Below, piece by piece: positions 14,483 to 15,352 of a stretch of 64,000 nt of DNA. A program made the position numbers and the translations under genes. The stretch's first letter is position 1. Each line of letters opens with the position of its first letter. The notes beneath the pieces were generated by a model. That model was given only the letters and a program-made list of their open reading frames with translations, did not search any database and was not told the DNA's origin. The stretch comes from Bacillota bacterium (GTDB taxonomy: Bacteria > Bacillota > Clostridia > Christensenellales > CAG-138), in assembly GCA_023409435.1 (NCBI GenBank), contig JAEYHP010000156.1, positions 2,959 to 66,958 of the forward strand. The letters are read 5' to 3'.

Positions 14483-15352
14483 ATGAAACACCTCAAGATC
14501 ACTCTTACCCTCGTTCTGGCGCTCGCGTTCGTGATGCCCGTTGCTGCAGGCTGCGCGGCAAAACCCGCGGTAAAACCCGTGCTGCTGGTCGTCAGCTTCG
14601 GCACGAGCTATAACGACAGCCGCGACATCACCATCGGCGCCATTGAAAACGCGCTCCAGGACACCTACCCCGAATACGAGGTGCGCCGCGCCTTCACGAG
14701 CCAGATCATCATCGACAAGCTCAAGGAACGCGACGGGCTCGAGATCGACAACGTGACCGAGGCCATGGACCGCCTTGTTGCCGACGGCGTAAAGGAAGTC
14801 GTTATCCAGCCCACCCATGTGATGAGCGGCTACGAGTACGACGATGTGATCGCCGAGGTCACGCCTTATCAAGATAAGTTCGACAGCTTCAAGACCGGCG
14901 AGCCGCTTCTTATTACGGATGCCGATTACGACAAGGTGGTTTCCGCAATCACAACGCAAACCGCCGCGTATGACGTGGACGGCACAGCCATCGTATTCAT
15001 GGGCCACGGCACCGAGCATGATGCGAACGCCACCTACGCGAAGCTCCAGCAGAAGCTCACCGACGCGGGGCAGGATAACTACTTCATCGGCACCGTAGAG
15101 TCTACGCCCTCCGTGGACGACGTACTTGCGCTTGTACAGGCGAGCAATGCAAAAAAGGTCGTGCTTCTGCCGCTGATGATCGTTGCGGGCGACCATGCCA
15201 ACAACGACATGGCGGGCGACGAACCGGATTCTTGGAAGTCCGTCTTTACGGCTGCGGGCTTTGAGGTCGAGTGCCTTATCCAGGGCTTAGGCCAGAACAC
15301 CGCGATACAGCAGCTGATCGCGGAGCATGCCGGCGCGGCCATGGGCAAGTAA
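14483..15352 (+). CDS. CbiK-family (sirohydrochlorin cobaltochelatase fold) protein with a lipoprotein signal peptide; predicted surface-tethered
   Basis: I trimmed the track ORF to the ATG at 14483, which lies 7 nt after a GGAGGA RBS. The N-terminus is MKHLKITLTLVLALAFVMPVAAGC (lipobox). The body is collinear with Salmonella CbiK (LLVVSFGTSY, RAFTS, IQPTH, FMGHGTEH, VAGDHANNDM, SW, GLG). Confidence 0.85.
   Translation: MKHLKITLTLVLALAFVMPVAAGCAAKPAVKPVLLVVSFGTSYNDSRDITIGAIENALQDTYPEYEVRRAFTSQIIIDKLKERDGLEIDNVTEAMDRLVADGVKEVVIQPTHVMSGYEYDDVIAEVTPYQDKFDSFKTGEPLLITDADYDKVVSAITTQTAAYDVDGTAIVFMGHGTEHDANATYAKLQQKLTDAGQDNYFIGTVESTPSVDDVLALVQASNAKKVVLLPLMIVAGDHANNDMAGDEPDSWKSVFTAAGFEVECLIQGLGQNTAIQQLIAEHAGAAMGK

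Follow-up and report, generated by a model that had tools for sequence, protein, structure and literature searches.

A predicted CbiK-family lipoprotein encoded with two putatively NEAT-like surface proteins and a BtuFCD-like importer behind a cobalamin riboswitch in Clostridia

The window analysed here is a stretch of 64,000 nucleotides from a Bacillota bacterium (Clostridia; Christensenellales; CAG-138), covering positions 2,959 to 66,958 of the forward strand of contig JAEYHP010000156.1 in GenBank assembly GCA_023409435.1. Its gene of interest encodes a protein of the CbiK chelatase family that carries a predicted lipoprotein export signal, and an earlier note made from the letters of the DNA had drawn attention to this combination. 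The gene is the first of six on the plus strand that run in the order cbiK-sp1-sp2-PBP-permease-ATPase with short gaps or overlaps, where sp1 and sp2 are surface proteins and PBP is a substrate-binding lipoprotein. A cobalamin riboswitch precedes the six genes and an anaerobic B12 operon departs from the same region on the opposite strand (Table 1).

Table 1. Features of the window, followed by related open reading frames (ORFs) at other loci
Feature	Position	Strand	Basis or remark
Exported CbiK-family lipoprotein gene	14483..15352	+	289 aa; Pfam CbiK and lipobox
Signal peptide of CbiK lipoprotein (predicted)	14483-14551	+	lipobox rule, N-terminal sequence
Lipobox Cys24 of CbiK lipoprotein	14552-14554	+	lipobox VAAG-C
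His175 of CbiK lipoprotein	15005-15007	+	FMGHGTEH, aligns with Salmonella His145
Glu206 of CbiK lipoprotein	15098-15100	+	GTVE, aligns with Salmonella Glu175
His238 of CbiK lipoprotein	15194-15196	+	VAGDHANNDM, aligns with Salmonella His207
Cobalamin riboswitch aptamer RF00174	14115..14298	+	Rfam 61.9 bits vs gathering 31.5, E=6.6e-13, model 1-189, full length
Intrinsic terminator, riboswitch expression platform	14389..14421	+	10-bp stem, 8 GC pairs, then TTTTTGTATT; between aptamer and start codon
Sigma-70-like promoter (TTGACA-18-TATGCT, TG extension)	14074..14103	+	consensus scan, 10/12 matches, pattern match only
sp1, 160-aa lipoprotein (lipobox SSC, Cys21), predicted NEAT-like fold	15427..15909	+	AlphaFold2 model and Foldseek
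sp2, 169 aa, type-I signal peptide, predicted NEAT-like domain, C-terminal transmembrane helix and basic tail	15914..16423	+	
Substrate-binding lipoprotein (PBP), Peripla_BP_2 class III/BtuF-FhuD type, lipobox AAGC	16420..17562	+	Pfam PF01497 E=3.8e-30
FecCD/BtuC-type permease	17576..18601	+	Pfam FecCD E=4.8e-82
ABC ATPase with extra C-terminal region of ~120 aa	18604..19716	+	Pfam ABC_tran E=3e-29
AdoCbl-II riboswitch heading divergent cbi operon	13943..14022	-	Rfam 36.9 bits vs gathering 36.5
Terminator after AdoCbl-II riboswitch	13842-13817	-	terminator search
Divergent anaerobic B12 operon (cbiD, cbiF, cbiG, cbiH, cbiJ, cbiET, cbiA, cobT, cobS, cobC, cbiB, cobD, cbiP)	587-13813	-	
Tandem-CbiK and sp1-type NEAT-like ORF, locus L035	3-2945		980 aa
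Tandem-CbiK and sp1-type NEAT-like ORF, locus L072	4136-6280		714 aa
Tandem-CbiK and sp1-type NEAT-like ORF, locus L053	7644-9917		
Tandem-CbiK and sp1-type NEAT-like ORF, locus L064	7722-9932		

The product of the first gene was called identically by an independent gene caller in a public assembly of the same organism. Its N-terminus, MKHLKITLTLVLALAFVMPVAAGC, has two lysines in the n-region, a hydrophobic core and a lipobox, laid out as MKHLK / ITLTLVLALAFVMPV / AAG-C24, and satisfies our own coding of a PROSITE PS51257-type rule (basic n-region, hydrophobic h-region, lipobox [LVI..][ASTG..][GAS]C and the Cys at 15-35). The same rule is passed by 95 of the 120 closest database relatives, many of which have a low-complexity linker of 20-40 residues after the lipobox Cys; the other 25 mostly have a type-I-like signal peptide (about 15) or are fragments, and no full-length relative without an N-terminal hydrophobic segment was found among the 120. 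The basic n-region, hydrophobic core and lipobox Cys that the earlier note had read at this N-terminus are thus borne out by the rule and by the relatives, and the protein is confirmed as a predicted lipoprotein, carrying both an export and a lipid-anchor signal.

A further statement of that note, that no in-frame ATG precedes the conserved LLVVSFGTSY core, proved to be wrong, as there is an ATG at 14534 (Met18) and there are GTG codons at 14531 and 14579. The start at 14483 is nevertheless favoured over these internal codons, because a GGAGG Shine-Dalgarno sequence lies 7 nt 5' of it, because no Shine-Dalgarno sequence is present 5' of 14531, 14534 or 14579, and because many relatives that have no internal Met keep the n-region, h-region and lipobox at the protein level despite the divergence of their sequences. 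An orthologue of 94% identity (P0006, 272 aa, from a Feifaniaceae metagenome-assembled genome) is annotated by NCBI from the Met equivalent to ATG 14534, and thereby loses the signal peptide. It could be argued from this annotation, from the existence of the internal starts and from the lack of a chelatase gene in the adjacent cbi operon that the signal peptide is an artefact and that translation from ATG 14534 or GTG 14579 gives an ordinary cytoplasmic CbiK of that pathway. We regard this as extremely improbable given the Shine-Dalgarno sequence and the conservation just described, and furthermore all three neighbouring gene products are predicted to be exported too, the score against the cytoplasmic equivalog falls well short of its cutoff, and CbiKs that truly have no signal form a separate group inside cbi operons, as set out below.

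Judged by its sequence the protein is a true member of the CbiK-family class II chelatases. The Pfam CbiK model (PF06180) matches residues 34-286 over model positions 3-260 of 262 (E=7.7e-86, 288.1 bits against a cutoff of 26.2), and residues 31-286 align with residues 2-255 of the Salmonella CbiK chain in PDB 1QGO at 41% identity (E=4e-54), which upholds the end-to-end alignment that the earlier note had put forward. The gap-poor alignment, which extends in the same way to three solved CbiKs, suggests a bilobal alpha/beta chelatase fold. Both of the His motifs that had been singled out as conserved stand in the expected places, no metal-binding histidine has been lost, and the triad of His175, Glu206 and His238 is intact and is conserved in 100% of 105 relatives. 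In Salmonella CbiK the equivalents of the two histidines, His145 and His207, are metal ligands of the C-terminal domain (PMC7689651).

There are also differences from the biosynthetic enzyme. The NCBIfam equivalog model for sirohydrochlorin cobaltochelatase (NF047852) gives 267.9 bits against a cutoff of 400, and where the biosynthetic enzyme is cytoplasmic the protein of the window has a conserved signal peptide. At three positions (Arg47, Thr177 and Thr204) the clade of the window protein shares its residues with two exported relatives, CbiKP of Desulfovibrio vulgaris and FetB of Porphyromonas gingivalis, whereas Salmonella CbiK has Cys, Ala and Ala. The public label 'sirohydrochlorin cobaltochelatase' can make a genome look B12-complete though its chelatase lies, by prediction, outside the cell.

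Exported and signal-less forms of CbiK were compared in a scan of metagenome contigs seeded with the FetB sequence, which returned 80 CbiK loci with relatives 36-46% identical to FetB. An N-terminal hydrophobic signal is found in 70 of these 80, a fraction that is no population estimate since the sample is biased to FetB-like exported forms, and nine have no signal and begin directly at MKKAILVVS-type cores. For six of the nine signal-less CbiKs the gene that directly precedes them, on the same strand, is a cbi gene and, in loci of at least 6 kb, none of eight lies beside a transporter; the corresponding figure for signal-bearing CbiKs beside FecCD or ATP-binding cassette (ABC) genes is 20 of 33, and many of these follow a riboswitch. 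The split in genomic context is clean and argues that exported and signal-less CbiKs do different jobs. In many non-Clostridial exported CbiKs from metagenomes (L085, L089, L096, L098, L099, L103, L107, L116 and L117) the signal peptide is followed at once by a His-rich stretch (AGGHGHK or similar) that leads into the chelatase core and may serve as an additional metal-binding tail; no such stretch is present in the window protein.

The aptamer upstream of the cassette is followed by an intrinsic terminator, and to judge from the sequence this layout would let bound B12 terminate transcription, as in an OFF switch. The divergent cbi operon on the minus strand has a riboswitch and a terminator of its own. 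Neither a chelatase nor cbiL nor cbiC is present in that operon, and there are no further B12 genes in the rest of the window. With cbiL and cbiC missing locally, a second B12 locus with these steps must exist elsewhere in the genome or the steps must be bypassed. A Pfam survey of 150 random ORFs flanking the cassette in its relatives gave no recurrent CbiX or CbiM (CbiC was seen four times and TP_methylase three times), and tblastn over the stretches near the cassette, as opposed to whole genomes, returned no second cytoplasmic chelatase, only fused tandem CbiK copies.

The two genes that follow cbiK encode proteins for which scans of family models gave no match to any Pfam or NCBIfam family. 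They are paralogues of each other (BLASTP 2e-7; 99.1% probability in a profile-profile comparison with hhalign), and each has its own invariant residues in the family alignments: the motifs SSSSMF and WYDR in sp1, and GGSGR, AMS, His114 and Tyr118 in sp2. Both are predicted to have NEAT-like beta-sandwich folds. AlphaFold2 models built on the family alignments have pLDDT values of 87.6 (sp1) and 85.8 (sp2), and when these were searched against the PDB with Foldseek the top 30 or so matches of each were almost all NEAT domains or the NEAT-related Shp, among them Listeria Hbp2-N2, Bacillus anthracis IsdX1 and IsdX2-N5 and Staphylococcus aureus IsdA/B/C/H. The best values are 4.8e-4 (4myp) and 8e-4 (3sik) for sp1, and 9.8e-5 for sp2 against IsdX1 (3sik), with a TM score of 0.72 and a root-mean-square deviation of 2.7 A.

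At the sequence level the resemblance is fainter. The sp2 profile finds IsdX1 among PDB sequences at E=0.18, and hhalign of sp2 with IsdX1/IsdX2-N5 gives E=3.4e-7 and a probability of 88%. Pfam NEAT (PF05031) is the commonest weak match, being found below threshold in 17 of 46 sp2 relatives with a best E of 0.0047; the family member P0392 reaches 31.7 bits against a cutoff of 32.8, and sp1 and sp2 of the window do not reach the gathering score. The canonical YxxxY haem-ligand motif of NEAT domains is not conserved as such, since sp1 has WYDR at that place and sp2 has an invariant HxxxY (His114/Tyr118) on the strand equivalent to beta8, which hhalign places, with low confidence, two residues out of register with the YNASY of IsdX1. 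A sortase signal in sp2 was considered and rejected, as the stretch before the transmembrane helix (EPLNGG or KPLTGG) is not a conserved LPXTG-type motif.

The sp2-like domain belongs to a large family, with 1,658 representative clusters (50% identity) at E<=1e-3. Arrays of up to five copies occur in proteins of 1,300-1,600 aa that have no other recognisable domain. Fusions or arrays of the sp2-like domain are seen in P0392, P0418, P0379 and P0363, and in P0392 and P0418 the domain is fused to Peripla_BP_2.

The last three genes encode a Peripla_BP_2 binding protein, a FecCD permease and an ABC ATPase and share an operon headed by a cobalamin riboswitch, which is the make-up of a BtuFCD-type importer. 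The best NCBIfam match of the permease is BtuC (198.6 bits, below the cutoff of 334) and that of the ATPase is 'corrinoid ABC transporter ATPase' PRK09536 (202.9 bits, below the cutoff of 537). The binding protein has no match among PDB sequences at E<=1e-3, and hence no ligand class is assigned to it. The C-terminal extension of the ATPase is kept in loci with the gene order of the window (matches of ~357-370 aa); in loci with the other gene order described below the protein is of ~245 aa.

The cassette was followed through 80 loci, almost all from Clostridia, taken from collections with one genome per species. Its carriers include Anaerotruncus, Harryflintia, Ruminococcus-like, Christensenellales and Syntrophomonas-related genomes, and it is widespread in Clostridia of the gut and of anaerobic digesters. 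In 76 of the 80 sp1 lies directly 3' of cbiK, and the block sp2-PBP-permease-ATPase was seen in about 70 within the stretches fetched. Two gene orders recur, that of the window (riboswitch-cbiK-sp1-sp2-PBP-permease-ATPase) and a second one (riboswitch-sp2-PBP-permease-ATPase-cbiK-sp1), and both preserve the pairs cbiK-sp1 and sp2-PBP. At least 66 of the 80 loci have a cobalamin riboswitch 5' of the gene that opens the cassette; it was confirmed with Rfam in 13, and an nhmmer profile made from the Rfam-confirmed copies matched 64. The cassette adjoins cbiD-F-G-H-J-ET-A in 59 loci; where it has the second gene order, these genes follow it directly and are read from the same strand.

Seven loci, several of them labelled Ruminiclostridium (L053, L065, L072, L073, L078, L044 and L056), have no riboswitch at the Rfam gathering score within 8 kb upstream, and either the element has diverged there or regulation differs. 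A few cassette contigs come from metagenome-assembled genomes assigned outside the Clostridia, namely Treponema (L055), Propionibacteriaceae (L050 and L079), Alistipes (L063) and Gaiellales (L075). Their CbiK lipoproteins are 56-64% identical, and the contigs reflect either mis-binning or horizontal transfer.

At some loci a single lipoprotein combines two or three CbiK domains, every one with complete MGHG, GTVE and AGDHA motifs, and in some cases an sp1 domain as well. To carry a binding module several times over on a single surface protein is usual for capture proteins, IsdX2 and IsdH for example, but not for enzymes. The tandem CbiK repeats resemble these multi-NEAT proteins more than they resemble enzymes and thus point to a capture role for the CbiK domain. 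Together with the export signal, the riboswitch, the importer context, the NEAT-like partners and the domain fusions, this leads to a reading to which we would give an even chance, that the cassette is a Gram-positive, Isd-like surface relay for a corrinoid or cobalt-tetrapyrrole with the CbiK lipoprotein as its capture module. More broadly, scavenging of B12-type compounds is the probable task of the cassette in many gut Clostridia.

Under such a scheme the riboswitch would turn the six-gene operon off when B12 is plentiful, and when it is scarce the cell would make the CbiK lipoprotein, sp1, sp2, the BtuF-type binding lipoprotein, the FecCD permease and the ATPase. The CbiK lipoprotein would be secreted by Sec and lipid-anchored on the outer side of the membrane of the monoderm, Feifaniaceae/Christensenellales-like Clostridia cell, where its tetrapyrrole cleft and His/Glu/His metal site could capture a corrinoid or a corrinoid precursor at the cell surface. 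The ligand would then be handed from CbiK to sp1, on to sp2 and finally to the binding protein, for uptake through the ABC importer. The nature of the ligand, the order of hand-over and the idea that CbiK binds rather than catalyses are what we infer by analogy with known relays.

The earlier note had placed the chelatase fold outside the membrane, with a non-cytoplasmic step and a likely role in tetrapyrrole or corrinoid binding or in extracellular metal insertion or removal. That interpretation is sound in outline and is strengthened by the cobalamin riboswitch upstream, the two NEAT-like proteins and the BtuFCD-like importer, which are conserved across Clostridia.

Several observations weigh against a capture relay. 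The whole triad is strictly kept in every domain copy, as would be expected of an active chelatase, and a receptor would not obviously need it; in vitro, chelatase activity is retained by the two exported relatives that have been characterised, by FetB with Co and Mn (PMC13065792) and by CbiKP as a cobaltochelatase (Lobo 2008, as cited in PMC11568245); and the position of the cassette beside de novo cbi genes in most of its loci fits biosynthesis or cobalt supply at least as well as salvage. Furthermore the characterised relatives have been described as haem-binding or porphyrin-metallating proteins and not as corrinoid binders, the NEAT likeness of sp1 and sp2 comes from predicted structures and sub-threshold sequence scores, and the relay, for the cassette and its clade alike, is drawn from the sequences, the modelled structures, the regulation and the gene neighbourhood.

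The first three of these points favour the main rival explanation, in which the protein is a genuine extracellular cobaltochelatase that inserts Co(II) into a secreted or environmental metal-free tetrapyrrole (sirohydrochlorin or another precursor), the product being imported through the NEAT-like proteins and the ABC importer to feed the cbi pathway. The invariance of the triad in the 105 relatives as well as in every tandem copy, the in vitro activity of the exported relatives and the 59 loci in which the cassette abuts or is co-transcribed with cbiD-F-G-H-J-ET-A are all in its favour. B12 riboswitches commonly control cobalt uptake, and neither the window nor the 150 sampled flanking ORFs has a recurrent cytoplasmic CbiX/CbiK or CbiMNQO. 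We consider it rather unlikely all the same, as there is no evident route by which a metal-free precursor would be exported, as the local lack of cbiL and cbiC implies a second B12 locus that could also hold a cytoplasmic chelatase, and as triplicated catalytic domains on one polypeptide would be unusual for an enzyme. A stronger version, that the exported CbiK is the pathway's own cobaltochelatase and that a 'cobaltophore' route replaces both the cytoplasmic chelatase and a cobalt-ion transporter, with the product carried back by the NEAT-like relay and the BtuFCD-like importer to the enzymes of cbiD to cbiA, seems to us decidedly unlikely.

The structural neighbours of sp1 and sp2 raise the question of whether the cassette serves haem. 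To our knowledge NEAT-type domains are known only as haem shuttles, and all solved structural neighbours of the two proteins are haem-binding NEAT domains. The closest solved exported relatives of the CbiK lipoprotein are likewise annotated as haem-binding (FetB, 9B86; CbiKP, 2XVX), and importers of the FecCD/Peripla_BP_2 type also serve haem. The operon could accordingly be an Isd-like NEAT relay for haem or iron with a haem-binding or dechelating lipoprotein of the IhtB/CbiKP kind, the link to the riboswitch being incidental. We give this a slender chance, since the riboswitch and the flanking cbi genes recur through most of the 80 loci and since the ligands seen in the haem proteins do not appear to have been kept. 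The haem of CbiKP is bound through two histidines according to the title of Lobo 2017, as cited in PMC11568245, and the positions of this H...H pair, seven apart as read from 2XVX, are taken in the window protein by Asp120 (98% Asp in the clade) and Thr127; YxxxY does not appear to be conserved in sp1, and sp2 has a His/Tyr pair instead. Even the iht operon of P. gingivalis, from which the comparison with IhtB is drawn, shows no response to a shortage of iron or haem (PMC12094164). A milder reading, in keeping with the capture relay, is that NEAT-type domains may have a widespread, B12-regulated branch that carries corrinoids.

The intact active site also bears on a surface dechelatase or remodelling enzyme, a possibility raised by the earlier note too, which would remove cobalt, or a different metal, from corrinoid or porphyrin analogues that the cell cannot use and so make metal or macrocycle available again. 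A reverse chelatase of this sort has been proposed in the case of IhtB (PMC12094164). With FetB, however, reverse activity with haemin was not seen (PMC13065792), and type II FecCD importers carry chelates rather than free ions whilst the cassette has no cobalt-ion transporter, and we hold this explanation to be very improbable.

If the cassette is indeed a capture relay it would bear on a matter that is poorly understood, namely how Gram-positive gut anaerobes capture scarce cobamides, as the known surface capture proteins BtuG, BtuH and BtuJ belong to Bacteroides. The combination of a chelatase-derived lipoprotein, two uncatalogued NEAT-like proteins and a type II importer under a B12 riboswitch is a candidate for the Gram-positive counterpart. 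The cassette also bears on the physiological role of exported CbiKs: discussion of CbiKP and FetB has so far centred on haem, whereas the link to a riboswitch, seen in Desulfovibrio as in Clostridia, speaks for cobalt or corrinoids. Of more interest than the CbiK lipoprotein on its own is the uncatalogued, B12-regulated NEAT-like branch with its BtuFCD-like importer, which is widespread in Clostridia.

Outside the cassette, the low-G+C stretch at 58001-62000 of the window (0.43 against ~0.55 in the rest) may be horizontally acquired; the minus-strand ORFs that it holds (58885-62172) were scanned in bulk within 26932-63402.

It remains to set the cassette against systems that are already known. 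The literature search, which did not cover subscription journals, returned no paper linking NEAT-type domains with cobalamin, corrinoids or B12 riboswitches and no description of this Gram-positive cassette. Among surface relays the Isd/NEAT systems (S. aureus IsdA/B/C/H-IsdEF, B. anthracis IsdX1/IsdX2 and Listeria Hbp2) come nearest in plan, having surface NEAT-type domains beside a Peripla_BP_2/FecCD importer and multi-domain versions, and it is on IsdX1, IsdX2-N5 and Hbp2-N2 that the sp1 and sp2 models superpose. They differ in that sp1 and sp2 lie below the Pfam NEAT threshold and do not appear to keep YxxxY, in that the cassette has a B12 riboswitch rather than Fur and a lipid or transmembrane anchor rather than LPXTG and sortase, and in that the cassette includes a chelatase-family protein. 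The B12-capture systems of Bacteroides, in which BtuG, BtuH and BtuJ work with BtuB and BtuFCD, are alike in that riboswitch-controlled operons are described as adding surface lipoproteins to a core importer for scarce cobamides; their folds are unrelated, however (a beta-propeller in BtuG, and others), the cells are diderm and the accessory proteins are neither CbiK- nor NEAT-like. As for canonical BtuFCD, the best family names of the importer are BtuC and a corrinoid ATPase, although the NCBIfam cutoffs for BtuC and BtuD are not reached.

Salmonella enterica CbiK (PDB 1QGO/2XWP) has the end-to-end similarity and the matched His145/Glu175/His207 already described, but is cytoplasmic, has no signal peptide and is encoded inside the cbi operon; the signal-less metagenome CbiKs resemble this Salmonella-type gene context, unlike the window protein. 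FetB/IhtB of P. gingivalis (PDB 9B86, ihtABCDE) is a CbiK-family lipoprotein 41% identical to that of the window and stands beside a binding-protein/permease/ATPase importer. It is an outer-membrane protein encoded with a TonB-dependent receptor as well as the ABC importer (PMC12094164), it inserts Co and Mn into a porphyrin analogue (PMC13065792), and it differs in this receptor partner, in having no NEAT-like neighbours and in having been studied as a haem-binding protein and Mn/Co-porphyrin chelatase.

A parallel in regulation is CbiKP (PDB 2XVX/2XVY), an exported CbiK-family protein that keeps the His/Glu/His site and has a link to a riboswitch and to btuCDF-type genes. In Desulfovibrio and Oleidesulfovibrio the cbiKP gene, which is associated with btuCDF, has a cobalamin riboswitch ahead of it (PMC545781; PMC11124144), and PMC11568245 describes CbiKP as periplasmic and its physiological role as still unsettled. 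CbiKP is soluble and resides in the periplasm of a diderm, whilst the window protein is a predicted lipoprotein of a monoderm; the two are 35% identical, the haem histidines of the former are Asp120 and Thr127 in the latter, and no NEAT-like partners are known for CbiKP. The protein described here is therefore not unprecedented, and is a Gram-positive lipoprotein variant of the exported-CbiK theme.

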